From assembly GCA_016699935.1 (NCBI GenBank), contig CP064992.1, positions 240,001 through 272,000 of the forward strand: a DNA stretch of 32,000 nucleotides, written 5' to 3'. The stretch is from Candidatus Saccharimonadota bacterium. Its GTDB lineage: Bacteria; Patescibacteriota; Saccharimonadia; Saccharimonadales; UBA4665. The notes beneath the pieces are model-generated. The model made no database searches and was not told the DNA's origin. It saw only the letters and a program-made list of their open reading frames with translations. A program made the translations under genes and the position numbers. This document shows, piece by piece, positions 4,030 to 32,000 of this stretch (position 1 is its first letter; the number at the start of each line of letters is the position of its first letter).

Positions 4030-4187
4030 CCTGAGTTCGACATAATCTCTCGACCTCAGCAGTGGAGGGCTTTGCCCTCCCACTTTTGGCTGGAGTAAAT
4101 CCAGCCAAAAAGTTCCCCAACCCTAAAGCGCTGCTCTCGCATCGCTGCTGACGGAGTAGAGCCTTGCATGCTTAGGTCGAATTGAGG
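4030..4187. ncRNA. candidate structured RNA of unknown family in a 400-bp ORF-free gap
   Basis: Outer helix CCTGAGTTCGAC (4030-4041) / GTCGAATTGAGG (4176-4187). Two strong internal hairpins: GTGGAGGGC-TTT-GCCCTCCCAC (4062-4083) and TTTTGGCTGGA-GTAAA-TCCAGCCAAAA (4084-4110). No family recognised by eye; the strand is undetermined. Confidence 0.2.
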
Positions 4188-4200
4188 TTAAACTAGTAGA

Positions 4201-4709
4201 CTACTTGCCTATTGTCGAACGATATATTTTGTAAGCGTTGATGAAACCTTTAGTAAATTTATCAGGTTCTGCTGCCATCATTGTTATTAACTGACCCGGC
4301 GATAACCATTTTCCACCAGCAACTTCACCCTGGTCTAACGTTAAGGTTTGATCCGACACAGCGGTGTATAAAGTATTGAATCTTTTCATTATGCTGCCCT
4401 CGTATTCAAAATCGCTATAGTATCGTGTAACTTCATGCAGCTTAATGTTTTTGATACCGATCTCTTCGTATAATTCTCGCTTAGCTGCAGTAATATAGTC
4501 CTCGTCCTCGTCTACATGTCCCCCGGCAGATTGATCCCATAGTCCAGGATGGCTGACGTTTAGAGCGCGTTTTGTATAAATATTTGCCCTTTGGAATTAA
4601 ACAGCACTATTCGAACAATTCTAACAATTTGACCCTGACTTACTGCGTCTTGACGATCCATTGCACCAATGACATTGTCGTTCTTGTCTACAATTGCAAC
4701 TTTTGTCAT
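4201..4709 (-). CDS. Nudix hydrolase (one apparent frameshift)
   Basis: Nudix box GGHVDEDEDYITAAKRELYEEIGI. The N-terminal part MTKVAIVDKNDNVIGAMDRQDAV..IFIQ joins the 3' ORF (4201..4389) only after a frame change at the T4 run 4570-4573. Confidence 0.8.
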
Positions 4710-5750: not shown

Positions 5751-6650
5751 ATGATGACACTATATGACGTGCTGAAAAAGCACCAAGAAAACCCAAAAGA
5801 TAAACGTCTCTTCGGGCTTGTACTCCAGGGGGGAGGAATGCGTGCCGCATACTCAGCGGGCGCCATAGTACCATTGATTGAATACAGCTTTGCTAGTACC
5901 TTTGAGCACGTTATTGGATCAAGTGCAGGGGCGATAAACGGGGCGTACTTTCTCGGGGGTGACATTGAAACCTATCACACGTATACAGACGACTTGACCA
6001 ATAAAAACTTTGTAAATTTACTCAGACAAGATAAAAAAGTTAACATCGATTACTTGGTTGACTTGGTTCTGAAGCATAAAAGACCGGTCAATATTCCCAA
6101 TTTACTAAATTCAAGATCTCAGCTACATGTTATCCTGACTGATGCCATAACTGGAAAAAAGACAATCATCTCTGACCATCATAAATTCGCACAAATCTAC
6201 GAGGAGTTTAGAGCCACGGCAGCATTACCTATTTTTTACGACAAAAAGGTAACAGTAGAAGGTAGAGATTATATCGATGGTGGTGTTGCAGACTTGATCC
6301 CTATAGATATTGCCGTCAAGCTAGGATGTACAGATATCGTAGTAGTCATGACACAGCGTATTGAGAATTATCATTTCGACCGTAGGCACGATCGTCTGAT
6401 CAAACGAATTATCAAGCAACTAGCCCGTAAGCAACCCCAAGCTATTCAGGCTATATTACCGACCAACGAAAAACTTTTACAAGCAAATCTGCGCTTTTTG
6501 AGACGTCCCCACAGAAAAGTTCGCTTATATATATTGGAGCCAAGCAACAATTCGACCCTTGTCCAAATATACGAAACTGATAAACCAGATGTTGAGCGCC
6601 TCGCGAGGCTCGGAATCACCGACATGGATGAGTTTTACACAAGAACATAA
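5751..6650 (+). CDS. patatin-like phospholipase
   Basis: Oxyanion-hole motif LQGGGMRAAY, nucleophile elbow GSSAG, catalytic Asp in DGGVAD. Starts 6 nt after tRNA-Arg. Confidence 0.85.
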   Translation: MMTLYDVLKKHQENPKDKRLFGLVLQGGGMRAAYSAGAIVPLIEYSFASTFEHVIGSSAGAINGAYFLGGDIETYHTYTDDLTNKNFVNLLRQDKKVNIDYLVDLVLKHKRPVNIPNLLNSRSQLHVILTDAITGKKTIISDHHKFAQIYEEFRATAALPIFYDKKVTVEGRDYIDGGVADLIPIDIAVKLGCTDIVVVMTQRIENYHFDRRHDRLIKRIIKQLARKQPQAIQAILPTNEKLLQANLRFLRRPHRKVRLYILEPSNNSTLVQIYETDKPDVERLARLGITDMDEFYTRT

Positions 6651-8441: not shown

Positions 8442-9069
8442 CTATGAGACGTACTGCAGCAATAACCCAATCGATACTGGCACTAAAAGATTATCAAAAC
8501 CAAGGGCGGCTATGTTTTCTAAAAATGTTGCGCCTAGTGCGCCAGCTACAACATATTGCCAATCAGCCCACATTATCCGAAAGTTGGCTGTACACCAGTA
8601 AAGCAAGTGATTACAAAAATGTCATGCTGCCTGCTAAGCTTTACTTCGGCCAAACAGGTGATATTTATTTTGTGTACCGTATCTACTGCCGACAATAGCG
8701 GCAAAACCATCGGCTAGTGCCATTTGCAATAGCAGTTGCATAATACCTTGGAAGTAGTGGTACATGTCAAAAGTCCAACACTTAGGGCAAAAATATTTCG
8801 CCGTAAGTCGGCCGCTGCACACTGCCAATGGCTCGAAACAACCCTGTCCACATAGAAATAAGACCACTGCAAAAAAGCCAAACTTATTAACCGAATTTCT
8901 GACCAGTCAAGAAAATAAGGCCAAAAGGCCACAAAGGTTCCAACTGAAACATGCACGAACTTTCGTCCAACTTCCGCCGTGTAGCCAATGTCGTCGCCAG
9001 CCCCATTCCGAAATCAATAAATGCCAAAACGACCACAACCGCCAGAAACATGTTTGTTAGATTCATCAC
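8442..9069 (-). pseudogene. CdsA/dolichol-kinase (CTP_transf_1) family integral membrane protein; at least 3 frameshifts as sequenced
   Basis: Fragments in three frames join to a typical family member: FLAVVVVLAFIDFGMG.., VHVSVGTFVAFWPYFLDW, R..IFALSVGLL, LALADGFAAIVGSRYG, KSLAGSMTF, GATFLENIAALGFDNLLVPVSIGLL. Confidence 0.5.
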
Positions 9070-9184
9070 CAGTAATTGTACGCTTGCGACTAGTAAGCAA
9101 CAAGGCTGGCGAGTAGAAAATCAAAATCGTTTCGCTGATCGGTCGAAAAAGTATATTGGTTCAGCCATGCGCTGACGGCGTCGT

Positions 9185-9781
9185 TCACCCAGCAGCTTCA
9201 GCAAAATTACGGTAGTACGCCACCGAAACTACTCTATAACGTGAGCCGTTGATTTGCTTGTAACCGTTGCGCACAAAACACCTTCGACAAGTAGGTTTGA
9301 TACGTTTCAGATATAATGTAGCCACCTTCTTTGCTGGGTAGACTTCGTTCGGCAAAATCGACAGCCATTCCACTGCCAGATATATTGTGCCACTCAGTGT
9401 TGTAACTGCTCAGTGCCGGCATTTCTTTTGTGGCTCTAGGCAGCCGACACCCGTCCGACAGAGGTTGACCAGTCTTCGCTGACCCCACAACGCTAAAGTG
9501 GGTTTGCCGAAAAGTTTATCTGCTGTCGAAAGCCTGTATCGGACGGAACAATCTTTGTATCGACAATTGTGGCAGTCCCCAGCTACTTGGGTGCAGAATC
9601 TAGCACCAAAAGTTTTTGTCTTGGAAGTCGGTTTTACCGTTTCCGCAGGAAAGCTCGCTTCAGTTTTTGACTGGGAAGATGGCTCGGTAGGTGGCACCAT
9701 TTTATCTTGCTTGGCGGTAGTTTTTACTGCTTTGTCTGGCGCATTTGCAGTCCGATTACCTAGCACAAATCCTAATATCAA
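9185..9781 (-). pseudogene. possible secreted L,D-transpeptidase (YkuD)-like protein, frameshifted; weak call
   Basis: Low-complexity Pro/Ser/Thr/Lys N-terminal region. One frame contains GQPLSDGCRLP, which resembles the YkuD SHGC[IV]R[LM] active-site motif. The pieces are spread over 3 frames. Confidence 0.3.
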
Positions 9782-9983
9782 CGCTCAGCTAGCAACTAAT
9801 ACCTATTAGTAGGTATACTAGCTTTTTGTATGAAAAGACTGTCTTTTGCTGTTTGCCTCGTCATTTTTGTGTTTCCGGATTTGATTCTTGCCTTTGCATT
9901 TACTACCTCCCGATCTATATCATAATATTACTCGCAAGACTCATGAATGCAAACAGCATTTAATTGTTTACTAGAATACCGTA

Positions 9984-10108
9984 TGGTCGGGGTGGCGGGA
10001 TTATCGTTCCGCTCTGGCGGGACTCCTCCTACAGTGCTCGCACAAACTCAAGCCAGCATGATTTTGTGCTACGCTCCTCGTCCGCGAACCAAACGCGGTT
10101 ACTGCACC
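9984..10108 (-). ncRNA. candidate structured element X1 (125 nt) ending in a tRNA-like 3' tail AATCCCGCCACCCCGACCA
   Basis: Homologous to X2 (10464-10587). Shared blocks are GGTTnGCGGACGAGnAGCG and CGAGCACyGyAGGArGGAGTCCCGCCAGAGCGGrACGmTAATCC. Also has the hairpin GTCCCGC-CAGA-GCGGAAC and a central hairpin GCACAAA..TTTGTGC. The strand is inferred from the CCA tail. Confidence 0.4.
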
Positions 10109-10123
10109 ATGTCACATACAACC

Positions 10124-10158
10124 ATATAAAATGGCCACAAAATGTGGCCATTTTATAT
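10124..10158. terminator. 16-bp perfect inverted repeat ATATAAAATGGCCACA-AAA-TGTGGCCATTTTATAT directly 3' of the tRNA-Pro(GGG)-like gene
   Basis: Verified base by base. U-rich on both sides, so it could act as a bidirectional terminator or a recombination site. Confidence 0.5.
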
Positions 10159-10160
10159 AG

Positions 10161-10230
10161 TCGAGGTAACGGATTTGAACCCACGACCTCGTCGTCCCAG
10201 ACGCGCGCTACCAAGCTGCGCTACACGGCG
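10161..10230 (-). tRNA. tRNA-Pro (GGG)-like, defective: normal from position 1 to the T-loop, with a non-complementary 3' end
   Basis: CGCCGTG-TA-GCGC-AGCTTGGTA-GCGC, then an anticodon arm CGTC-TGGGAC-GACG (6-nt loop, one T short), then GTGGG-TTCAAAT. The following CCGTTACCTCGA pairs with neither the T-stem nor the acceptor. A TATACT promoter box lies about 15 nt upstream. Confidence 0.55.
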
Positions 10231-10463
10231 TGATTAACAGGGGTAAGTATATCTAAATTGGGATGATATTGCTAGTAGACATGTGGTTCATATGAACTTG
10301 CAATGCTAAATGATACTTTAAGGAAGTCTACAATGTATTAATAACACAAAAAGGACGAAACCCTTACACCTGTAGAGTTGTGTGATTTATCGGCCAAAAA
10401 AATGATTCCCTGTTTACGTAAATCCTGAGGTTAAAGAAGCAGAGCTTGTTCTAGGCATTTATG

Positions 10464-10587
10464 TGGTCAGGGAGACAGGATTAGCGTCCCGCTCTGGCGG
10501 GACTCCTTCCTGCGGTGCTCGACAGAAAAGAACCAGCTCTTTTCTGTCTGCGCTCTCGTCCGCAACCTGCGAGCGCAAGTCCGCACC
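10464..10587 (-). ncRNA. candidate structured element X2 (124 nt) ending in AATCCTGTCTCCCTGACCA, a copy of the tRNA-Pro(UGG) 3' end
   Basis: See X1. The central hairpin GACAGAAAAGA-GCTGGT-TCTTTTCTGTC differs in sequence from X1 but keeps the pairing. The tail matches tRNA 10636-10653 except for one extra T. Confidence 0.4.
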
Positions 10588-10601
10588 ACATTCACCAACA
10601 T

Positions 10602-10632
10602 GAAAAAACCTCAACTTCACTGAGGAGTTTTC
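10602..10632 (-). terminator. intrinsic terminator after tRNA-Pro(UGG)
   Basis: On the minus strand: AAAACT-CCTCA-GTGAAGT-TGAGG-TTTTTTC. Confidence 0.6.
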
Positions 10633-10635
10633 ATA

Positions 10636-10712
10636 TGGTCGGGAGACAGGATTTGAACCTGCGACCCGGCGGTCCCAAAACCGCGTGCGCTACCGGACTG
10701 CGCCACTCCCCG
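10636..10712 (-). tRNA. tRNA-Pro (anticodon UGG), CCA encoded
   Basis: CGGGGAG-TG-GCGC-AGTCCGGTA-GCGC, T-arm GCAGG-TTCAAAT-CCTGT. As sequenced the anticodon loop is 8 nt (TTTTGGGA) and the 3' acceptor strand is 6 nt (CTCCCG). Confidence 0.85.
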
Positions 10713-11481: not shown

Positions 11482-12066
11482 TCACGTATGCGCAGCTAGT
11501 GACATCGCAAGTAAAAAGACCGCGCAAAAGATTACTTCCAACAAAAATACATAACGCTTTAGGCGTTCAAGCACTAGTACGGCCACAAAGATACATGCCG
11601 TACCGAGAAATGCCAAGAACATAGCTTCTGCCCATGTGCTAAGGTACTTTGCAGATAGCGTAATGATCACTACCTCGGCTACCATACCAACCATTGTAAA
11701 CACCGCAAATGGAGTGTGCCATTTCGTATACACAGCGTTCGCTGGCAGCCATACAAACAGAAGTTCGCTCAAGAGCATTGGGACCAATATCCAGTAAAAT
11801 GCCTCTGAAATAACCATTCGTGGAGCTGCCCAAAACCAAACAAAACTGTAGTACACAGGAGCAATCACCGTCATGGAGAGAGAAAAGATACGACTTGATT
11901 TCGGCGAAGCTGCAATAGTATGACTGATAGTTTTCAAAAACGAACCATTACTTCGGTAATGCTTCGCTAGCAGCCCTGCCAGCAGCGCAAAAAACGGCAC
12001 CAGAATAATAAGGTCAACGTACTGCCAGAATGCGATAGGGACCGACGGAATCATACTGACTGCCAC
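11482..12066 (-). CDS. hypothetical polytopic membrane protein
   Basis: Intact 194-aa ORF, about 6 hydrophobic segments. No recognisable family. Confidence 0.55.
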   Translation of the reverse strand: MAVSMIPSVPIAFWQYVDLIILVPFFALLAGLLAKHYRSNGSFLKTISHTIAASPKSSRIFSLSMTVIAPVYYSFVWFWAAPRMVISEAFYWILVPMLLSELLFVWLPANAVYTKWHTPFAVFTMVGMVAEVVIITLSAKYLSTWAEAMFLAFLGTACIFVAVLVLERLKRYVFLLEVIFCAVFLLAMSLAAHT

Positions 12067-12851
12067 GCCTCGCGGATGTGTTTGGCGGTGCGGGCGCGGC
12101 CGGTGGTTTCGTCTACGTCAACTAGGAGAGCGCAAAACTGCATGCGGCCGGTGGTTTCGAGCTGATTGCGGGTCTGGTAGCCATCGCGCCAGCGTGGGAT
12201 GATTGAGCCAAATGTCACGCCCAGCGAGGATGTCGAGTGAGCCGCACATGCCAACATCGGTTATATGTGCGGTGCCTTTCGGTAAAATTTCCGTGTCGGC
12301 TGTGGGTACATGCCAGTGATCACCTATCACGGCTGATACGCGGCCATCAAGTAGTAACCGAACACGATCTTCTCGCTGCTAAAATCTCCATGAATATTGA
12401 CAATGCTCGCAGCATACGAACCGCGCGCTACAACGGCCAAGATTTCATCGATTTTCTTGAGCGGGTTTTCGGTCTCCACATCGGCATGTTTACCCACGAT
12501 ACTGCCAAGTCATGCTCACCACCAGCACGTTCCCATTCGGTGTTTCGACCAGCTTGTAGCCAGGGCCCGGACAACTAAGCATGTTGGCTGGCCCGACAAC
12601 CGGTTCAGCGGGGTTTTCTAAAAATGAAGTTAAATCCAGATACGGTTATGGTTCCCGCCTGAAAAAGCATGTACGCCGGCACGCTGCAACCGAGCCATAT
12701 CATCCGGCGACATACCCTTCCCGTCTGTGACGTTTTCAGCCTGTGCCACAACAAAATCAATATGCTCTGCAGCAACTAAACCAGGCAGCATCTTCTCGAC
12801 CGCTTGCATACCCATTTCGGCCATTACATCACCCACATAGAGAATTTTCAT
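12051..12851 (-). pseudogene. ymdB: YmdB-family metallophosphoesterase (2',3'-cyclic-nucleotide phosphodiesterase); at least 3 frameshifts as sequenced
   Basis: MKILYVGDVMAEMG..DFVVAQAENVTDGKG..GGNH, then [22 protein letters not shown]-like, and [28 protein letters not shown] in other frames. The ATG at 12851 is preceded by GGGTATACTATAGGT. Confidence 0.8.
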
Positions 12852-12914
12852 ACCTATAGTATACCCGAACCACCAGATTAACGATTTCTTTTGCCCCCTA
12901 AAACCTACAGCTTT

Positions 12915-13599: not shown

Positions 13600-16500
13600 C
13601 TAGCGCGCGGTTGTAAATGTCTGCTGCGCCTTCATGTAGTCAATGTCTACTGTCCTTGCGGTTGTGCCAATAGACTTTATGAGAAGTTGACCAAAACCAA
13701 GTGCCCGCGTAGTTCCCGTTGGAATGTTCGTGTTGCGAGTGCCGACATTCGTACCATTTATGTAGTATGTCACGAGCGTACCAGCGGAATTGACCTCAAC
13801 CCGAAGTTTATACCAGGTAGCTGCTGTAACCGCAGTCGTAGTAGTGTTGAATGTTCGAGTTGAGTTATTTGATGTCATAATCTGCCAGTTTGGAGTAGCT
13901 GCTGAACCGGTCGAGACGCCGCCCTCGTCGTACACAAAGGCAGCAGCATCAACTTGGTTGGCTGCCGTTGCCGTGTCAAGTAGACCAACAACTAGCTGGT
14001 AGCGCTGGGTAGCATCTGAAAGCGTGGCAATGTTGATCGCCGTTTCATACGCCATTGAACCTCCGCCAAGTGCGATAGCACTGGTACTCGACATAAAAGC
14101 TGTTCGCCCAGTTGCTGAAGTCCTGGTTGTGCTCCTGTACAACCCCGGACGATTCGCAGCTGTTGTGGCAGTAGCGGCCGTCGACCCCGTGGAGTTTGTG
14201 GCAAACACGTCAGATCCAGTGGTCGTTTCATTACCAATCAGATCGGTAAAGAAATAGTATGCTGTCGTTGTGTCTGTTTGGCTAGCGGGAGCCGATATAC
14301 AATCTTTCCATGTGCTGGACTCGTAGCACCGGAATTTCGCAAGCGACGTGTTGTAGTAGATAGCGCCGTTGGTTGCAAGCACATTGCCTTCTGTCGTAAT
14401 GGAGTCCAGTACTAGTGCGGCACCGGTCGCAATAGCGCTACCCGTATCACCTATGTATATATTGCCAGCGTCAGACACCTCAAAAGCAATCGTACCAGCA
14501 TCCTGGATTGCAAATTTCCCAGTTGAGTTTAGGTTTATATTGAAGTTATTCGCACCTAAGCTCACAGTAGTAGCAACGTCAAGACTAAGGGTGTCGCTAA
14601 GCTCTGTGAAGTTCAGGCTGTCAGGTGAGATATCTGCTGCGGCGATAGTACCATCAGTTATTTCGCCAGTTTCTATGGTTTGCCCGAGTTTCGTAACATT
14701 TGTGCTCAGCGCAGCATCTGCCACAGAACCCGTACCACTTATGGTCAACGCACCGGCGACATTGGCGTCGGTCAGTTCCGGTGTGAAAGTCAGTGAGCTG
14801 AGGTCAAAGGTGCCACTCGTGATGGTGCCTGTATTATCCCCATCGAAAATGAAAGCTTCCACGTTGGCTTCAGTGAGGTTATTATCTGCGGCGCAAGCTA
14901 GACATCGGTCGTTTCGTTCCACTTAAGAACCTGTGTGTCGGAGCAGCCCTGCAAAGACCAACCCCTGAAGCCAATATCTCAATACCTGAACCAGATGAAG
15001 CTGTTGCAGAGAGCGCATCTGTTGCAGCAAATGTTTTTATCGCAATGTCATCGGCATTTACCGTAATGCCGTTGCCAGCACCTATGTTGAGTGTGGTGGT
15101 TCCGCCAAGAAACAGCACCACCATTGGCTAGACCGTTACCAGCCGAAATCGTGAGTCCGCTATTGGCTAGCATCGTGTTGGTTACCCCGCCAGTACCTAT
15201 GCCCAATGTAAAGGGCGAGCCGCCAGTACCTGAGCCGCTTCGTGTCAGACCACCGCTAACTGTGGCGTCGGTGACTTCATTGCCTACTATGCCATCTGCT
15301 TCACTAGTAAGATAGCCGTTGTTGTTGGCGTAGGCATCGACTTGGGCTTCGTTCAGAACCGTATCGGTGTCTACGTCAGCGGCACAAGCCCAGACAGAAC
15401 CATTCCACTTGGCTATCTGGTTTGGACTACAGCTGAGACCAGCGAGGACATCAGTGTTGTCGAGGTAGCCAGACAGGTCAACACTCCCGCCATTGACGAG
15501 ACTGAGGCTGTTCCCGGCTAGACCGAGTGTTTGGGCGTCGGTGTTGTCTAGATACGGGCTGAGGTCAACGGTGCCGGCATTGCCAGAAATACTGAGGATG
15601 TCACTGGCAACTGAGATGTTTTGGGTGTCGGTGTTGTCTAGATAGCCTGCGAGCGAGACAGAGTTGCCGTTGCTAATACTCAGGCTGTTAGCGGCCAGGT
15701 TGAGGGTTTGCTGGTCGGTATCGGTGTCGGTGTCGACGTCTGCGGCACAGGCCCAGGCAGAACCGTTCCACTTGGCTATCTGGTTTGGACTACAGCTGAG
15801 GCTGGCTAGGGTGTCTGTATCAGTATCGTCGAGGTAGGGACTAAGGTCGATGGTACTGGCATTGCCAGTGATGGATACGGTGTTACCGGTGCGAGAGATA
15901 GCTTGAGAGTCTGTATTGTCGAGCAGGCTAGATTGGTCAGCCGTGTTGCCACCGGCAATCGTAAGAATCTGAGTACCAGGTTGTAGCTGAGAGTCTGGGC
16001 ATCCGTGTTATCGAGGTAGGCGCTGAGGTCTATGGTGCCAGGATCGCCACTGATGCTGAGAATATCTGCAACGAGGCTCAGGCTCTGGATTTCGTTCGTG
16101 ATGCTACCATCGACTTCGCTGGTAAGGTAGCCATTGTTGTTGGCGTAGGCATCGACCTGGACCTCATTGAGGACTGTATCGGTGTCTACGTCAGCGGCAC
16201 AAGCCCAGGCACTGCCGTTCCACTTGGCTATCTGGTTTGGTGAGCACGACAGACCGGCGAGGCTGTCGGTATCTATGCTGGATAGGTCAATCGTGTTACC
16301 GCCAGTAATAGACGGGTTGGTGCCGACCAGGCCAAGCGTCTGGGCATCGGTATTTATGGGTGCGAGATCGATGCTGTTGCCACCAGAGATAGTGAGGGTG
16401 GTGCCGACCAGGCCGACCGTCTGGGCGTCGGTGTTGTCTAGGTAGCTGGCGAGATCGACGGTAGATGCATTACCCGTAATGCTCAGGGTATCTCCTGCTA

Positions 16501-19500
16501 ATGAGATAGCTTGGGCATCCGTGTTGTCGAGCAAGCTGCCGAGGTCAGCCGTGTTGCCGCTGAGATAGTGAGGATGTGAGTGCCACTGTTCCAGCTGAGG
16601 GTTTGGGCATCGGTGTCTGTGTCTGTATCGGTGTCTACGTCAGCGGCACAAGCCCAGGCGGAACCGTTCCACTTGGCTATCTGGTTTGGACTACAGCTGA
16701 GACCAGCGAGGACATCAGTGTTGTCGAGGTAGCCAGACAGGTCAACACTCCCGCCATTGACGAGACTGAGGCTGTTCCCGGCTAGACCGAGTGTTTGGGC
16801 GTCGGTGTTGTCTAGATACGGGCTGAGGTCAACGGTGCCGGCATTGCCAGAAATACTGAGGATGTCACTGGCAACTGAGATAGCTTGGGTGTCGGTGTTG
16901 TCTAGATAGCCTGCGAGCGAGACAGAGTTGCCGTTGCTAATACTCAGGCTGTTAGCGGCCAGGTTGAGGTTTGCTGGTCGGTATCGGTGTCGGTGTCGAC
17001 GTCTGCGGCACAGGCCCAGGCAGAACCGTTCCACTTGGCTATCTGGTTAGGACTACAGCTGAGGCTAGCAAGGGTGTCGGTGTTGTCTAGGTAGGGACTA
17101 AGGTCTACTGTGCTAGCATTGCCGGTAATAGAGACTGTGTTGCCGGTGCGGGAGATAGCTTGAGTCTGTATTGTCGAGCAGGCTAGATAGGTCAGCCGTG
17201 TTGCCTCCGGCAATGGTAAGAATCTGTGTACCTGTGTTGTAGCTGAGTGTCTGAGCGTCGGTGTTGTCTAGATAGGGAGCCAGGTTAATGGTGCCCGGGT
17301 CACCGCTAATACTCAGGACATTGGCAACGAGGCTTAGGCTCTGGATTTCGTTCGTGATGCTACCATCGACTTCGCTGGTTAGGTAGCCGTTGTTGTTGGC
17401 GTAGGCGTCAACTTGGGCTTCGTTCAGGACGGTGTCAGTATCTACATCTGCGGCACAGGCCCAGGCAGAGCCGTTCCATTTGGCTATCTGGTTGGGTGAG
17501 CAAGATAGACCAGCTAGTACGTCGGTGTTTATGGAGGCGAGGTTAACGCCAGTGCCACCAGAAATGTTTAGTGTTGTACCGGCAAGGCTTAGGTTTTGGC
17601 TGTCGGTGTTTATGGGAGCGAGGTCGATGCTATTGCCACCAGAAATGGTCAGCGTTGTACCAACAAGTCCGACTGTCTGAGCGTCGGTGTTGTCTAGGTA
17701 GCTGGCAAGATCGACAGTAGATGCATTACCCGTAATGCTCAGGGTATTGCCTGCTTTGCTTATGGCTTGGGTGTCGGTGTTGTCTAGGTAGGGACTGAGG
17801 TCTACTGTGCCGGCACTACCGGTAATGCTAATGGTGTTGCCGGTGCGAGAGATAGTCTGAGCATCAGTGTTATCTAGCAGGCTGGATAGGTCAGCGGTAT
17901 TGCCACTAGAGATGGTTAGGATACGAGTGCCACTGTTCCAGGTGAGGGTTTGTAGCTCGTTGCTGGTGCTGCCATCAACCTCACTAGTCAGGTAGCCGTT
18001 GTTACTGACCCAAGCATCGACTTGGCCTTCATTGGTTACGGTGTCGTTATCTGCAGCACAGGCCCAGGCAGAACCATTCCATTTGGCTATCTGGCTAGTA
18101 CCACAAGCCAGGTTGGCGAGGACATCGGTGTTGTCTGAGGTAAGAGCCAGGTTAACCGAACCGCCATTTACCAGAGAGAGGGTGTTGCCTCCAAGTGAAA
18201 GTGACTGGGAGTCGGTGTTGTCTAGATACGGGCTGAGGTCAACGGTGCCGGCATTGCCAGAAATACTGAGGATGTCACTGGCAACTGAGATAGCTTGGGT
18301 GTCGGTGTTGTCTAGATAGCCTGCGAGCGAGACAGAGTTGCCGTTGCTAATACTCAGGCTGTTAGCGGCCAGGTTGAGGGTTTGCTGGTCGGTATCGGTG
18401 TCGGTGTCGACGTCTGCGGCACAGGCCCAAGCAGAGCCATTCCATTTGGCTATCTGGTTAGGACTACAGCTGAGGCTAGCAAGGGTGTCGGTGTTGTCTA
18501 GGTAGGGACTAAGGTCTACTGTGCTAGCATTGCCGGTAATAGAGACTGTGTTGCCGGTGCGGGAGATAGCTTGAGAGTCTGTATTGTCGAGCAGGCTAGA
18601 TAGGTCAGCCGTGTTGCCTCCGGCAATGGTAAGAATCTGTGTACCTGTGTTGTAGCTGAGTGTCTGAGCGTCGGTGTTGTCTAGATAGGGAGCCAGGTTA
18701 ATGGTGCCCGGGTCACCGCTAATACTCAGGACATTGGCAACGAGGCTTAGGCTCTGGATTTCGTTCGTGATGCTACCATCGACTTCGCTGGTTAGGTAGC
18801 CGTTGTTGTTGGCGTAGGCGTCAACTTGGGCTTCGTTCAGGACGGTGTCAGTATCTACATCTGCGGCACAGGCCCAGGCAGAGCCGTTCCATTTGGCTAT
18901 CTGGTTGGGTGAGCAAGATAGACCAGCTAGTACGTCGGTGTTTATGGAGGCGAGGTTAACGCCAGTGCCACCAGAAATGTTTAGTGTTGTACCGGCAAGG
19001 CTTAGGTTTTGGCTGTCGGTGTTTATGGGAGCGAGGTCGATGCTATTGCCACCAGAAATGGTCAGCGTTGTACCAACAAGTCCGACTGTCTGAGCGTCGG
19101 TGTTGTCTAGGTAGCTGGCAAGATCGACAGTAGATGCATTACCCGTAATGCTCAGGGTATTGCCTGCTTTGCTTATGGCTTGGGTGTCGGTGTTGTCTAG
19201 GTAGGGACTGAGGTCTACTGTGCCGGCACTACCGGTAATGCTAATGGTGTTGCCGGTGCGAGAGATAGTCTGAGCATCAGTGTTATCTAGCAGGCTGGAT
19301 AGGTCAGCGGTATTGCCACTAGAGATGGTTAGGATACGAGTGCCACTGTTCCAGGTGAGGGTTTGTAGCTCGTTGCTGGTGCTGCCATCAACCTCACTAG
19401 TCAGGTAGCCGTTGTTACTGACCCAAGCATCGACTTGGCCTTCATTGGTTACGGTGTCGTTATCTGCAGCACAGGCCCAGGCAGAACCATTCCATTTGGC

Positions 19501-20439
19501 TATCTGGCTAGTACCACAAGCCAGGTTGGCGAGGACATCGGTGTTGTCTGGGTAAGAAGCCAGGTTAACCGAACCGCCATTTACCAGAGAGAGGGTGTTG
19601 CCTCCAAGTGAAAGTGACTGGGAGTCGGTGTTGTCTAGATAGCCCGCAAGCGAAACGGAGTTGCCGTTTAGGATTGAGAGGTTGTTGGCTGCCAAGCTGA
19701 GCGTCTGGGCATCCGTAACCGCTGCTGGCGATGCACACGCCCAAGCACTACCATCCCACTGAGCAACCTGGCCAACCGTACAGCTTAAACTGGCTAGCAC
19801 ATCTGTGTTTATGGAAGCAAGATTGATAGTATTGCCACCACTCAATGAGAGGCTTGTCCCCGCGAGACCAAGCGTTTGATTGTCTGTATTGATAGGCGCA
19901 AGGTCTATACTGTTGCCACCAGCGATCGTCAGGATTGTTCCGGCCAAACCGACAGTTTGGGCGTCGGTGTTGTCCAGATAGCTACTAAGATCGACTGTCT
20001 GGGCAACGCCCGACAGTGCCAGTTTATTGCCCGTTTTTGAAAGCACCTGAGGATCCGACACTGCCGTAGTTAAGCTACCCAAGGTAACACTATTGCCGTT
20101 TGAAATACTGAGTACGCGCGTTTGCTCGTCCCATGACAGCACTTGACTGTTAGTTCCGCCCCCTGAAGCCTGAAGGTACGACCCCAGTTCGCCGTTTGCC
20201 TGAAGTTGTTCGAGGCCCATTTTGAGCTCAGCCGCTTGCTGCAATTTCTGTTGGGCAGTGATCTTTGAGTTCGCATTGCCAAGCCCACGCAAGTTTGATA
20301 TCGGATTACCAAACCGAGGATAAAACGTAAAAAGAATTAAAAAAACAATTACGGCCGTCGGTACCATGCGACTAAAGACGTATCGCCAGCGAAGCGTCTC
20401 ATTTTGCTGGTTTTTTGCTTGCGCTGAATCTGTTATCAT
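13600..20439 (-). CDS. giant repetitive surface protein (about 2280 aa if the frames are joined): N-terminal TM anchor, DNTD-type short repeats, at least 12 Cys-pair modules, C-terminal LamG/ConA-like domain. The largest intact ORFs are 17113..20439 and 13600..14922; about 7 frameshifts lie between 14900 and 17200
   Basis: N-terminal TM VPTAVIVFLILFTF. The unit GNT(L)SI(T)G(N)AS(T)VDL(S/A)xYLDNTD(A/T/S)Q recurs dozens of times. The module L(A)xLSC(S)PNQIAKWNGSAWACAADVDTD recurs at least 12 times. The C-terminus WYKLRVEVNSAGTLVTYYINGTNVG is typical of concanavalin/LamG jelly-rolls. ORFs 16944..17213, 16498..17034, 15806..16534, 14882..15124 and unlisted pieces carry the same repeats in shifted frames. 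Confidence 0.75.
16801..19640. repeat. two near-identical tandem copies of a ~1413-bp (471-codon) unit inside the giant gene; more diverged copies extend down to about 15300
   Basis: Identical 82-aa antisense ORFs at 17432..17680 and 18845..19093 (offset 1413). A line-by-line comparison shows identity, apart from a 2-nt (about 17165) and a 1-nt (about 16975) deletion in the lower copy. 15521-15640 matches 16775-16894 at an offset of about 1254. Confidence 0.9.
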
Positions 20440-21344: not shown

Positions 21345-22857
21345 CTACTTGGCGAATTCGATGGCGCGGGTTTCACGTATGACGTTGACTTTGATGGTAC
21401 CTGGGTAGTTCATGCTGCTTTCGATCTTGGTCGCGATGTCTCGAGCCAAGCGTATGGCACTAAGGTCATCAATCTGCTGTGGCCGCACAAAAACTCGGAC
21501 TTCACGGCCAGCGCTGATGGCATAGGACTTTTCGATACCTGGGAAACCATTGGCAATGTTTTCCAGCTCTTTCATGCGCTCACCGAAGTTTTCGGCTGAA
21601 ATGTTTCGCGCACCAGGTCGAGCTGCCGATATCGCATCGCATACACGGACAATTAGTGCTTCGACGCTTGTGGCCTCTACATCATCATGATGTTGTTCGG
21701 CTGCCAATGCAACTTCTTCTGGCGCACCGTATTTTCGCAGCATTTCACCTGATATGTGGTGGTGTTTGCCTTCTATTTTGTGTGTCAGTGCCTTGCCCAT
21801 GTCGTGCATAAGCGTGGCGTATTTGGTTACTTGTACGTTGGCTCCCAACTCTTCAGCCAGCATACCGGCCATGTGAGCCATTTCGGTGCTATGTTTGAGA
21901 ACGTTTTGGCCATAACTGGTTCGGAAACGCAACTCACCGAGTAGGTGCAGCAGTTCTTTTGGTATGCCGAGCACTCCAACCTCACGGGCGGCATCTTCAC
22001 CAGCCCGAACAACGTCTTTTTCGACATTTTTCTGAGCTTTTTCGACAACTTCTTCTATACGACCTGGGTGAACACGACCGTCTTTTAGTAGTAGTTCGAG
22101 TGCCTGGCGAGCCACTTCGCGGCGGACAGGGTCAAAACAGCTTAGGACTATGTAGCCAGGTGTATCATCAACCATTATGTCGACACCAGTAGCTCGCTGT
22201 AGCGCCTGGATATTACGACCTTCTTTGCCGATAATTCGACCCTTCATTTCCTCGTCTTCCAGCTTGACGCTGGTGAGAGTTCGCTCGGCGGTAACTTCGC
22301 TACTCATGCGCTCCATAGCTGTCACGATCAGTACACCCGCTTGGTCTTCGGCAGTTTCTTTGGCTTCGTTTTGCATCTTGGCGATCAGACCTGTTAGATC
22401 ATTTTTGATATCGCGCTCGGTCATTTGCATCAGCTTTTCGGCAGCATCGGCCTTGCTGAGCTTGGCAATTTTCTCTAGTTTTTCTTGTTGTTTGACGCGA
22501 ATATCACGTATTTCGTTTTTCAGCGCTTCAACTTCATCCTCGCCAGCACGTAGTTTTTCACTTCGTTTATCGAGCTCGTCGAGCTTTTTGTCGAGCGTGG
22601 TTTCGCGCTGAACGAGACGGTTTTCAAGATCTTTGAGCTCGTTACGACGTGTCTGTTCCTCTTTACGTGCCTCATCAGCCACCTTACGAGCCTCTTCACG
22701 GGCTTCATCGACTAGTTTATCGGCTTCTTTTTTGGCCTTAGCAAGTTCTTTGTTTGCTTTATCATCAGCTTCGGCTGACTTTTTTGCTTAGGTATGTACT
22801 GCCACCATAGCCAAGGCCAAGCCCTGCTACCGCGAGCAATATGGTAATTGGTTCCAT
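21345..22857 (-). CDS. rny: ribonuclease Y (one apparent frameshift near the N-terminus)
   Basis: KH domain GKEGRNIQALQRATGVDIMVDD; HD domain HSTEMAHMAGMLAEELG..LMHDMGKA. The N-terminal TM MEPITILLAVAGLGLGYGG starts at 22857 and joins the main ORF (21345..22682) after a shift at the T6 run 22780-22785. Confidence 0.9.
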
Positions 22858-31197: not shown

Positions 31198-32000
31198 CTA
31201 TTCCTTTGTGGCGGCTTCGCGGACCTTGGCGGCTATTTCAGATTGGACTTTGGGGTTTTCTTGCAGATATGTCTTGGCAGCTTCACGTCCTTGGCCTATT
31301 TTCTCGCCGTTATAGGCAAACCAGGCACCAGCTTTTCGACAATGTTTTGCGTGACGGCTAGGTCAAGTATGTCGCCGGCAACCGAAATGCCTTGGTTATA
31401 CATTATGTCAAACTCGGCTTCGCGGAAGGGCGGGGCAATCTTGTTTTGACCACTTTCACCCGAGCGCGATTGCCTATAACTGCATCACCAGCTTTGATTT
31501 GCGAAATACGGCGTATATCCATCCTGACACTTGCGTAGAATTTAAGCGCGTTTCCACCGGTGGTAGTTTCTGGGTTACCAAACATAACACCAATCTTCAT
31601 GCGAATCTGGTTGATGAAAATGACGGTAGTTTTACTACGGCTTATAACCCCAGTTAGTTTACGCAAAGCCTGGCTCATGAGACGCGCTTGTAGTCCCATA
31701 TGGCTATCGCCCATGTCACCTTCTATCTCTGCACGGGGTACGAGTGCTGCAACAGAGTCAACAACGATAAGGTCGACGGCATTGGAGCGAACCAGCGTTT
31801 CGGTAATTTCAAGTGCTTGTTCCCCGTTATCTGGCTGACTGAGCAGCAAATTCTCAATATCCACACCAATGCGTTTGGCATATGAAGGGTCAAGTGCGTG
31901 TTCTGCGTCTATGAAAGCCGCTGTGCCACCGCGCTTTTGCACTTCGGCTATGGCGTGAAGAGTGAGCGTGGTTTTACCACTCGATTCCGGACCGTAAATC
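31198..32000 (-). CDS. recA: recombinase RecA; the N-terminus lies beyond the window edge; 2 apparent frameshifts in the C-terminal part
   Basis: Walker [10 protein letters not shown] at the window edge; [10 protein letters not shown]; [20 protein letters not shown]; [30 protein letters not shown]. The C-terminal [45 protein letters not shown] is readable after shifts at T4 runs 31444-31447 and 31333-31336. Confidence 0.9.

Follow-up and report, generated by a model that had tools for sequence, protein, structure and literature searches.

Two small structured modules, each lying behind a proline tRNA gene and each consisting of a conserved core set between two pieces of a tRNA, occur in the window (the whole 32,000-nt stretch of Saccharibacteria DNA analyzed here), and the family to which they belong exists outside it. 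The observation itself is confirmed. The most probable reading is a small selfish element directed at tRNA T-loops; a small RNA with a CCA tail is less likely. Read on the minus strand, both loci run from a proline tRNA through a terminator-like hairpin and a module of ~130 nt to a 19-nt copy of a tRNA 3' end. The upstream tRNA is tRNA-Pro(UGG) in the case of module X2 and a dead tRNA-Pro(CGG) in the case of X1. This two-locus layout, with its coordinates, had been noted in a preliminary description of the DNA and is borne out: a covariance model with six family members as input matches X2 at 10464-10594(-) with 116 bits and X1 at 9984-10115(-) with 112 bits, and finds no third match across the window. 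The features are as follows.

10636-10712, minus strand: tRNA-Pro(UGG), aberrant in this assembly (ARAGORN 'tRNA-???'; Rfam tRNA, 39 bits)
10595-10638, minus strand: hairpin 1a, terminator-like, beginning at the tRNA CCA (terminator scan: stem 10625-10609, then a T-run)
10581-10594, minus strand: X2 5' leader TGAATGTGGTGCGG, similar to tRNA positions about 2-15 (local alignment to its own tRNA)
10564-10580, minus strand: X2 helix P2 (compensatory changes across the module family)
10564-10572, minus strand: 3' strand of P2, TCGCAGGTT, an exact 9-mer of the cognate T-stem 5' strand plus TT; the P2 5' strand is its complement
10483-10563, minus strand: X2 conserved core (covariance model, 116 bits; fold z-score -4.4), in the order GCGGACGAG, helix P3a, P3, block CGAGCACCGCAGGAAGGAG, P4, GCT
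10521-10548, minus strand: X2 variable hairpin P3
10503-10521, minus strand: X2 block CGAGCACCGCAGGAAGGAG
10486-10503, minus strand: X2 hairpin P4
10464-10482, minus strand: X2 tail AATCCTGTCTCCCTGACCA, positions 58-76 of tRNA-Pro(UGG) with one C>T change
10158-10230, minus strand: tRNA-Pro(CGG) pseudogene (Rfam 25.1 bits, below the gathering score of 29; no ARAGORN call)
10122-10160, minus strand: hairpin 1b, with 19-nt arms that are 95% complementary (inverted repeat I1)
10086-10116, minus strand: X1 5' leader and P2 region, with a degenerate T-stem 5' copy, TTTGGTTC
10003-10085, minus strand: X1 conserved core (covariance model, 112 bits), with P3 at 10040-10069 and P4 at 10007-10022
9984-10002, minus strand: X1 tail AATCCCGCCACCCCGACCA, an exact match to positions 58-76 of the intact L030 tRNA-Pro(CGG)

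Both conserved blocks that had been reported as common to X1 and X2 are present. The 22-mer GGAGTCCCGCCAGAGCGGRACG has two exact occurrences in the window, with 0 expected by chance, and the consensus of the 19-nt tail matches only at 10464-10482 and 9984-10002 (0.01 expected). A mechanical repeat search recovers the direct and inverted repeats and the two strong hairpins. Hairpin 1a has the same design as the native tRNA terminators of relatives. The left flank of X2 resembles its own tRNA in local alignment (z=3.0, p=0.004), and the covariance model also aligns the X2 5' leader with the tRNA 5' end.

The tRNA-Pro(UGG) of the window, previously described as intact, has an anticodon loop of 8 nt, a C27-C43 mismatch and one missing C in the acceptor 3' strand; the description of the X2 tail as a copy of its 3' end does hold, apart from the C>T change. 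In the relative L114 (93% amino-acid identity), the tRNA-Pro(UGG) sequence is normal. The second tRNA had been called GGG-like. It is in fact tRNA-Pro(CGG) in a dead form: it is orthologous to the L030 gene, with 84% identity to it, and has lost 3 nt from the anticodon loop, and the X1 tail, which had been assigned to a GGG-like tRNA, is the 3' end of the intact CGG gene of L030. The locus has the same gene neighbors as in relatives, a mixture of housekeeping and unknown genes. One of these protein genes differs in the window from every deposited copy, and the window assembly contains many frameshifts.

The anatomy of the modules is that of a split T-arm. In every copy, a core of 81-95 nt lies between two pieces of the neighboring tRNA: on the left the T-stem 5' strand plus TTC, and on the right the sequence from AATCC through the 3' end (16-19 nt). 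The left piece, which the preliminary description missed, sits just 5' of GYGGACGAGG. Both flanks track the neighboring tRNA in three T-arm classes, the left flanks being TCGCAGGTT or CGCAGGTTC for UGG, GTGGGTTC for CGG and ACCGGTTC for Cys; the T-loop GGTTCAAATCC is common to all host tRNAs. Because the core is flanked by two tRNA pieces, the tail is one half of a split T-arm and not a feature specific to an RNA. Further tRNA resemblance is found to the left. The left flank of L037 still matches tRNA-Cys at 6/7 positions of the acceptor 5' strand and over 9 nt of the anticodon loop, and homology past the T-stem is significant for X2 and L037 only. The covariance model aligns end to end with tRNA-Pro genes, weakly (11.8 bits). 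The modules themselves are not called as tRNA genes by ARAGORN or Rfam: they have no anticodon arm, nothing that would serve as a complementary acceptor 5' strand, and a T-arm interrupted by 81-95 nt.

The right flank forms a direct repeat of 16-21 nt with the upstream tRNA, from AATCC (CAAATCC in L031) to CCA, and at seven loci only 170-260 nt of non-coding DNA lie between the repeats. The CCA tail is degenerate or lost in L030a, L030b and L037, and CCA is lost in three of eight copies. The tails decay as though neutral, with identities of 12/19, 16/19 and 16/19. In L038, L040 and L031, a strong hairpin (-22 to -31 kcal/mol) that resembles a native tRNA terminator starts at the CCA after the tail.

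The fold of the module is supported. Across the family, 88.4% of cells in the predicted fold pair, compared to 75.8% in shuffles and 34-46% in slid controls, and 15 pairs show double (compensatory) changes. The central hairpin pairs in both X1 and X2 with different stem sequences, as had been reported. Covariation had also been claimed for the closing helix TGCRG/CYGYA, which instead has an A-C mismatch in two of six family members; the compensatory change is carried by the helix GG.GC/GC.CC. The single-sequence fold of X1 is no better than shuffles (z=+0.24). G-U pairs (19 cells) exceed A-C pairs (5 cells), which favors the tRNA-sense strand as the structured strand. Unpaired motifs GGACGAGG, CGAGYACCGCAGGRAG and CGATAATCC are conserved. 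Both tRNA-derived flanks have pairing partners within the module: the P2 5' strand, which lies upstream of the core and outside it, pairs with the 5' flank and varies with tRNA class, and the constant GCAGGA pairs with the 3' flank. In addition, the T-stem halves around the core can pair (83% of cells), followed by a short closing helix (94%).

Homologous cores scoring 91-132 bits were located in other Saccharibacteria contigs beside tRNA-Pro(UGG) (L030), tRNA-Pro(CGG) (L038), tRNA-Pro(GGG) (L040) and tRNA-Cys(GCA) (L037). Six good copies are known. The L030b module is decayed overall (16 bits), and L031 carries a variant of 240 nt with the same layout and a P3-like loop, which at 12.8 bits counts as undetected by the model. 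One metagenome scan gave five real matches, all miniature. The presence of the module varies among relatives: it is absent from the orthologous tRNAs of other relatives, and L045-L047, relatives of the L040 locus, have the tRNA-Pro(GGG) and no module. X2 and L030a occupy orthologous-looking loci and are 68% identical, with flanks at 31-47% and a neighboring spacer that does not align. The P4 hairpins of X1 and X2 have 13/18 positions in common, versus at most 8/18 with cores elsewhere, although the tRNAs of X1 and X2 differ. Fragments derived from tRNA-Pro are found at this locus in L030, L031, L034 and L036.

We tentatively favor a small non-autonomous element that inserted into the T-loop of a redundant, decaying tRNA copy; of the three ideas in the preliminary description, T-loop insertion fits best, given that the core splits the cognate T-arm in three classes. 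Each module would be a degenerate second copy of the neighboring tRNA gene, its T-loop divided between about nt 56/57 and 58 by the structured core. The core itself may be a selfish insertion element specific for the T-loop sequence GGTTCAAATCC, and insertions would persist only in a redundant copy that lies behind a functional gene and its terminator. Target DNA, rather than any RNA product, would account for both the T-stem 5' strand plus TTC on the left and the tail (positions 58-76) on the right, and the left part of the disrupted copy would decay. The anatomy, the family, the cognate flanks, the covariation and the variable presence are established here, whereas we infer mobility, this target rule and the kind of intermediate; the covarying hairpins and conserved linkers would serve the element in its own propagation, with the tRNA-sense strand in single-stranded form, as RNA or as DNA. 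Such an insertion is consistent with the occurrence of the family beyond the window, the cognate flanks, the T-loop common to all hosts, the supported fold with its G-U excess, the frequency of spare tRNA debris at the locus, the tRNA-like left flanks of L037 and X2, the similarity in P4 of X1 and X2, the neutral-looking tails and the absence of the module at orthologous tRNAs.

Several observations fit it less well. A tRNA and terminator directly precede the module each time (intact ones, except for the dead tRNA at X1), so insertion requires that four kinds of tRNA already had a tandem copy, or that some mechanism makes such copies. The class-dependent P2 5' strand lies outside the core and is unexplained by plain insertion, and tRNA homology of the left flank extends beyond the T-stem significantly in only two copies. 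By inspection the core has neither terminal inverted repeats nor a target duplication. No transposase, integrase, nuclease or recombinase gene was identified among the window ORFs tested with Pfam or beside any copy, and an empty site, in which that spare copy would have its T-loop whole, was not found. The good copies number only six, and the conservation of X2 and L030a above their flanks suggests maintenance in place rather than recent movement.

Maintenance in place would be expected of a host-functional non-coding RNA, which we consider possible but doubtful. Such an RNA would derive from a tandem tRNA duplication and be made by read-through of the terminator, and its specificity would lie in three segments: the T-stem 5' copy, the antisense strand that pairs with it, and the 19 nt at the 3' end. 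Mimicry of the neighboring tRNA or its precursor, or pairing with either, would keep these segments matched to that tRNA. The conserved unpaired motifs, the strong covariation and the G-U excess for the tRNA-sense strand are consistent with this, as are the identity of X2 and L030a at orthologous loci while the adjacent spacer cannot be aligned, and a complement of the T-stem 5' copy that covaries with tRNA class as a selected helix would. On the other hand, no promoter-like site was found between terminator and module, so that a promoter of its own was rejected, and the module directly follows a strong terminator. Three copies show decay of the tail and CCA, the L030b module is down to 16 bits, and most relatives lack the module; X1 lies beside a dead tRNA, and its fold does not rise above shuffles. 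Of the small RNA with a CCA tail that was first proposed, the RNA-like fold, covariation and novelty are supported and the CCA tail is not.

A miniature att-flanked integrative element, or a uniform remnant of one, is rather unlikely. A tyrosine integrase would have crossed over in the T-loop, the element supplying a replacement tRNA 3' end and terminator (attL) and displacing the native 3' end and terminator to the far side (attR, the tail), with the module as an attP arm at the crossover. A T-loop crossover with a duplicated tRNA 3' end is reportedly the classic integrase pattern. The direct repeats from T-loop through CCA and the terminator-like hairpin after the tail of L038, L040 and L031 agree with this part of the earlier proposal, as does the variable presence of the module, and transposase genes and an inverted tRNA-Pro pair in relatives mark a recombination hot spot. 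However, the split T-arm is left unexplained, since attR should be contiguous and the T-stem 5' copy is 81-95 nt away from the rest of the T-arm. The integrase-bearing islands predicted between the same repeats in relatives were not found (0/7 loci have an integrase there), nor was a larger relative in viral contigs or in one metagenome scan. Both repeats are cognate at tRNA-Cys and at tRNA-Pro; after a jump from one to the other, one of the tRNAs would be chimeric. Hairpin 1 goes with the orthology of the tRNA (by eye, the X2 and L030a hairpins both have CCTCAG), and hairpins 1a and 1b of the window cannot be aligned with each other though the cores can.

It is unlikely, though conceivable, that the module is a programmable RNA specific for its cognate tRNA, in which a constant scaffold carries exchangeable segments that read both T-arm strands. 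These would be antisense to nt 49-56 and 60-65 and masked by the sense copies. Such an RNA would work either by guiding to T-loops a nuclease or recombinase whose gene lies elsewhere, or on its own tRNA or pre-tRNA directly. The narrower proposal of a guide for an RNA-guided recombinase or nuclease, in the style of bridge RNA, seekRNA, omega-RNA or CAST homing crRNA, is quite improbable. There the core would be the scaffold, and segments matching the tRNA would steer a protein encoded elsewhere to the T-arm. The segments do vary with the target tRNA around a constant scaffold, and antisense is found on both sides of position 57 (P2 5' strand against nt 49-56, GCAGGA against nt 60-65). The 3' position and 16-19-nt length of the tail are also like those of TnpB/Cas12 guides. 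Yet nuclease, recombinase and transposition genes are not near any locus, and no Rfam release 15 model matches, whether at the gathering threshold or at E<=5-10. Several copies have a decaying tail, the putative guides are paired inside the module, and identity to the intact neighboring tRNA would direct cleavage of an essential gene. Least probable is an intervening sequence spliced from the T-loop of a working tRNA gene: the T-stem halves and closing helix around the core could pair, but neither an anticodon arm nor a complementary acceptor 5' strand is present in the interrupted copy, the tRNA upstream is intact, and the core is far below group I intron size, with no intron or ribozyme match in Rfam.

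Wider searches returned no known counterpart. The Rfam scan that had been proposed (Rfam 15) gave only tRNA matches in the window and none to the modules at the gathering threshold or E<=10, and none at E<=5 on L038, L040 and L041. An 18-mer of the conserved hairpin has 24 exact matches in GTDB species genomes, all of them coincidental and within the coding DNA of bacteria with high GC content. No real match came from four pattern scans of viral contigs; the 66 matches there to TTCGYGGACGAGGRRCG proved, on inspection by eye and with the model, to be chance matches in coding sequence. When the locus was compared to phage records by BLAST, only tRNA-Pro genes were returned, and no description of such a module was found in the literature. 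A coding reading was rejected because the ORFs that cross the two modules agree neither in frame nor in where they stop. Ribozyme, SRP RNA, RNase P RNA and integron attC were dropped for lack of their defining features, a retroviral-type primer-binding site on the opposite strand because the G-U bias points the other way, and a casposon because there are no terminal inverted repeats.

If the module is a mobile T-loop insert, it would be a new kind of very small element living on tRNA copies in Candidate Phyla Radiation bacteria, and would help to account for the tRNA-gene debris and rearrangements at these loci. If it is instead an RNA under maintenance, a tRNA duplicate would, as rarely happens, have been remade into a structured RNA while still matching its parent, and this would point to a tRNA-directed function; a programmable RNA would add a new class of guides or regulators derived from tRNA in episymbionts with reduced genomes. 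On either reading, a conserved, covarying structure is absent from Rfam. There is also a caution for annotation, in that a tRNA 3' end with CCA behind a tRNA is not necessarily a prophage boundary or the end of a small RNA.

Compared to known systems, the modules share with tmRNA (including the permuted two-piece form) and YrlA a tRNA origin, a T-arm and acceptor 3' strand ending in ACCA, and large added domains. They differ in that the tRNA-like domain has no acceptor 5' strand, CCA is not conserved, and the insertion is in the T-loop and does not replace the anticodon arm; no match above noise was found on the modules to tmRNA (ARAGORN, Rfam) or YrlA. A group I intron, which in tRNA genes usually interrupts the anticodon loop of a complete tRNA, was rejected in view of the T-loop site, the 81-95-nt core, the incomplete host copy and the lack of an Rfam match. 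For CAST homing crRNA, Pfam scans of the window ORFs identified no tnsB, tnsC, tniQ or cas genes.

The modules resemble tRNA-targeting integrative elements, including CIMEs without an integrase, in having a direct repeat that begins in mid T-loop and ends with CCA, a proximal repeat at a tRNA that looks functional and has a terminator, a distal repeat at a displaced 3' end that has another terminator, and carriage that varies among relatives. Unlike those elements, the unit is about 170-190 bp with no gene and no autonomous partner found, the distal T-arm is split by a core with RNA-type covariation, and one core occurs at four tRNA species with both repeats cognate. Of the attributes of an att site, the direct repeat of the tRNA 3' part from the T-loop is present; an integrase or cargo between the repeats, or a related autonomous element, is not found (7 loci; exact-pattern searches), and attR has no contiguous T-arm-like core.

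The palindrome-associated elements of IS200/IS605 (PATEs) and omega-RNA ends are similar in length (about 80-130 nt), in having several hairpins with strand-specific structure, in lacking terminal inverted repeats and target duplication, in inserting beside a short specific sequence, and in that the DNA flanking the 3' end of the element matches what a guide would be. The core has hairpins near both ends, no inverted-repeat termini and, by inspection, no flanking duplication, features that are not specific to IS200/IS605. The modules differ in that no TnpA or TnpB gene is seen (none in Pfam scans of the window ORFs tested) and no Rfam model matches, IS605-orfB and omega-RNA included; one T-loop nucleotide is unaccounted for at the junction, and the complement of the 5' flank lies outside the core. 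The bridge RNA and seekRNA of IS110/IS1111 would differ from the modules in that no DEDD recombinase gene is seen nearby, the matching segments are paired with sense copies rather than placed in internal loops, and one of them lies outside the inserted core. The likeness would be that of a constant scaffold with segments that match both sides of the insertion point.

Read on the minus strand, the locus consists of two units, each a tRNA-Pro gene followed by a hairpin and a module (a left flank, a conserved core and a tail that copies a tRNA 3' end, positions 58-76, AATCC through ACCA):

10636-10712, minus: tRNA-Pro(UGG)
10595-10638, minus: terminator-like hairpin, starting at the CCA of tRNA-Pro(UGG)
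10464-10594, minus: module X2
between X2 and the dead tRNA-Pro: spacer of ~230 nt
10158-10230, minus: dead tRNA-Pro
10122-10160, minus: hairpin with a 19-bp stem
9984-10116, minus: module X1

The two units can be aligned along their full length. A conserved 22-mer occurs exactly twice in the window, as do the tails (~0 expected by chance in each case), bearing out the two-unit layout of the preliminary description. The single-sequence fold of X2 is far better than its shuffles (z=-4.4); that of X1 is no better (z=+0.24).

Neighbouring proteins assign the window to Candidatus Saccharibacteria, and its remaining genes are ordinary chromosomal ones (SHMT, RNase Y, RecX, TsaB/E and RecA, among others). 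Many protein genes are broken or shorter than in relatives, at:

264-1313, 1531-2550, 21345-22682 and 31403-31942
8445-9029, 9093-9871 and 12051-12860, minus

SHMT, a MurA-like gene, RNase Y and RecA are truncated, the YmdB homologue contains several frame changes, and the window homologues of two conserved neighbours (207 and 276 aa) have no long ORF. This reflects either an error-prone assembly or a decaying genome. In tRNA-Pro(UGG) the anticodon loop is 8 nt long (TTTTGGGA), C27-C43 is mismatched and the acceptor lacks one base, whereas a relative at 93% amino-acid identity (L114) has a normal tRNA-Pro(UGG), anticodon arm included, over the stretch covered by its contig, which stops before the acceptor 3' strand. 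Given the broken genes and this aberrant tRNA, single-base details of the window are unreliable. The second tRNA, with an anticodon loop short by 3 nt and an altered acceptor, is the orthologue of the relatives' tRNA-Pro(CGG), not the GGG isoacceptor first proposed. Also present at 13600-20439 (minus), a region of strong positive GC skew, is a series of large Thr/Ala/Asn-rich ORFs of repetitive sequence, including one of 440 aa (SO2946-like C-terminal domain) and one of 1108 aa, with piecewise homology to a 937-aa protein in relatives.

The window layout recurs in a relative, L030 (CP065016), where tRNA-Pro(UGG) and a hairpin precede a module with a decayed tail (L030a, 115 bits), and tRNA-Pro(CGG) and a hairpin precede a heavily decayed one (L030b, 16 bits); scores refer to a covariance model built from six family members. 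A single scan of metagenome contigs with a gapped pattern gave three chance matches in coding DNA and five real members:

L038: adjoins tRNA-Pro(CGG)
L039 and L040: adjoin tRNA-Pro(GGG)
L037 and L041: adjoin tRNA-Cys(GCA)

A distinct module of ~240 nt follows tRNA-Pro(UGG) in another relative, L031 (5720-6011, minus). Its interior holds scrambled tRNA-Pro fragments, direct and inverted, its hairpin loop AAACTTGTTT matches the helix P3 loops of L040 and L037, and its last 21 nt copy the tRNA 3' part perfectly, with a second terminator beyond them. The tRNA-Cys module of L037 is directly followed (9712-10249) by an incomplete tRNA-Leu-like 5' fragment and a 176-aa ORF encoding an HNH_3 endonuclease domain, then an intact tRNA-Leu(UAA); this region looks like a homing-endonuclease insertion with a partly duplicated tRNA target.

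The orthologous locus is module-less in six loci from four distinct relatives (L025-L028, with one common protein, L029 and L036), where tRNA-Pro(CGG) and tRNA-Pro(UGG) are spaced 24-69 nt and followed by a single terminator. L034, with the order UGG then CGG, also has no module, and tRNA-Pro(GGG) stands without one in three relatives of the L040 locus. No module copy was found in the viral contigs and phage records searched. The tRNA-Pro pair occurs either as CGG then UGG, close together on the strand opposite a 203-aa gene (L025-L029, L031, L036), or as UGG then CGG on the same strand as that gene (window, L030, L034), which points to inversion and reordering. The locus is an insertion hot spot. 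An rve-type transposase adjoins the pair in L029 (7199-8170); L030 (6680-8150) has, directly upstream of tRNA-Pro(UGG), a transposase of the ISAzo13 family together with a pseudo-tRNA-Pro fragment made up of a D-arm and an anticodon arm whose loop is enlarged. Upstream of tRNA-Pro(CGG) in the module-less L034 (~5880-5915) and L036 (~4170-4205, minus) is a conserved element, CGTGAC(C/T)G..GAGGTCAACTTCAGC, that appears to derive from the anticodon stem and variable region of tRNA-Pro. A relative at 78% amino-acid identity (L115) encodes, between a conserved 199-aa gene and tRNA-Pro, a 160-aa ORF (829-1311) with no Pfam match, missing from the same position in other relatives.

Each good copy has, directly 5' of a conserved G(C/U)GGACGAGG, a stretch of 8-9 nt equal to the neighbouring tRNA's T-stem 5' strand with TT(C) added:

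UGG genes (two): TCGCAGGTT and CGCAGGTTC
CGG gene: GTGGGTTC; the GGG gene has this with one mismatch
Cys gene: ACCGGTTC

On the other side, 16-19 nt following a conserved CGMUA reproduce that tRNA from AATCC through the 3' strands of its T-stem and acceptor to ACCA. With both flanks cognate, the module thus holds both halves of the neighbouring T-arm, separated by an 81-95-nt core in the place of T-loop nucleotide 57. The left flank of L037 also matches the tRNA acceptor 5' strand (6/7) and 9 nt of the anticodon loop, and that of X2 aligns with its own tRNA at z=3.0; the other left flanks show no significant tRNA similarity beyond the T-stem. tRNA-Pro genes can be aligned to the covariance model over its full extent, albeit weakly (11.8 bits). 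The module is most simply described as a degenerate second tRNA copy with an interrupted T-loop.

Tails are perfect or one off in X1, X2, L038, L040 and L031. Identity falls to 16/19 in L037 and L030b and 12/19 in L030a, all of which have lost the CCA, so the CCA tail of the suggested sRNA is not supported. The pattern looks like neutral decay of duplicated tRNA DNA rather than a conserved RNA 3' end. ORFs across the modules are not conserved, and a coding reading was rejected.

Five helices emerge when six sequences are analysed with RNAalifold and explicit pair counting:

P2: T-stem 5' copy with its complement upstream
P3a: GG.GC with GC.CC; G:C to A:U double change in L030a and L038
P3: variable AU-rich hairpin
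P4: variable GC-rich hairpin
P5: constant GCAGGA with UCCNGY in the tail

Across these sequences 88.4% of cells pair, versus 75.8% in column shuffles (0/500 reach the observed value), and both sides change in 15 of 32 pairs; with partner columns slid, pairing falls to 34-46%. The excess of G-U over A-C cells (19 versus 5) places the structure on the tRNA-sense strand, as RNA or single-stranded DNA. In an alternative, compatible fold the T-stem halves pair together (83%), with the core closed by a 3-bp helix (94%). The closing helix proposed previously contains an A-C mismatch in both L038 and L040.

Three readings had been offered: a CCA-tailed sRNA, an att remnant and a T-loop insertion. We tentatively place the last first and rank the others below it. 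A spare tRNA copy would have received the core in its T-loop, which accounts, without extra assumptions, for flanks that are cognate at four tRNA species, the common T-loop GGTTCAAATCC, the patchy distribution and the greater likeness of the two window cores (P4 13/18). Fragments of tRNA-Pro elsewhere in these loci indicate that spare copies do arise. Insertion leaves two things unexplained: the constant presence of an intact tRNA and terminator directly upstream, and the complement of the 5' flank, which sits outside the core and varies with tRNA class. A maintained ncRNA, rather unlikely, is suggested by conserved unpaired motifs and by 68% identity between X2 and L030a where the flanking spacer is not alignable; the terminator upstream of the module, the lack of a sigma-70-like promoter between the two in the window, L030, L038 and L040, the decay of some copies and their sporadic presence argue against it. 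Less probable again is a miniature integrase/att element: it accounts for the direct repeat and for the second terminator starting at the tail CCA in L038, L040 and L031, but leaves unexplained the split T-arm and the cognate repeats at Pro and Cys alike, and the integrase-bearing islands looked for in relatives are entirely missing among the loci and contigs searched. Antisense segments on both sides of position 57 would suit a guide RNA, which we regard as improbable, as no partner gene was seen. A spliced intron is very improbable.

The modules had no Rfam family match at the gathering threshold or at E<=10, in the comparison proposed by the preliminary description, and no description of such a module was found in the literature searched. 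The nearest known kinds are integrative elements that target tRNAs and small non-autonomous insertion elements rich in hairpins. From both, the module differs by its split cognate T-arm and its RNA-type covariation.
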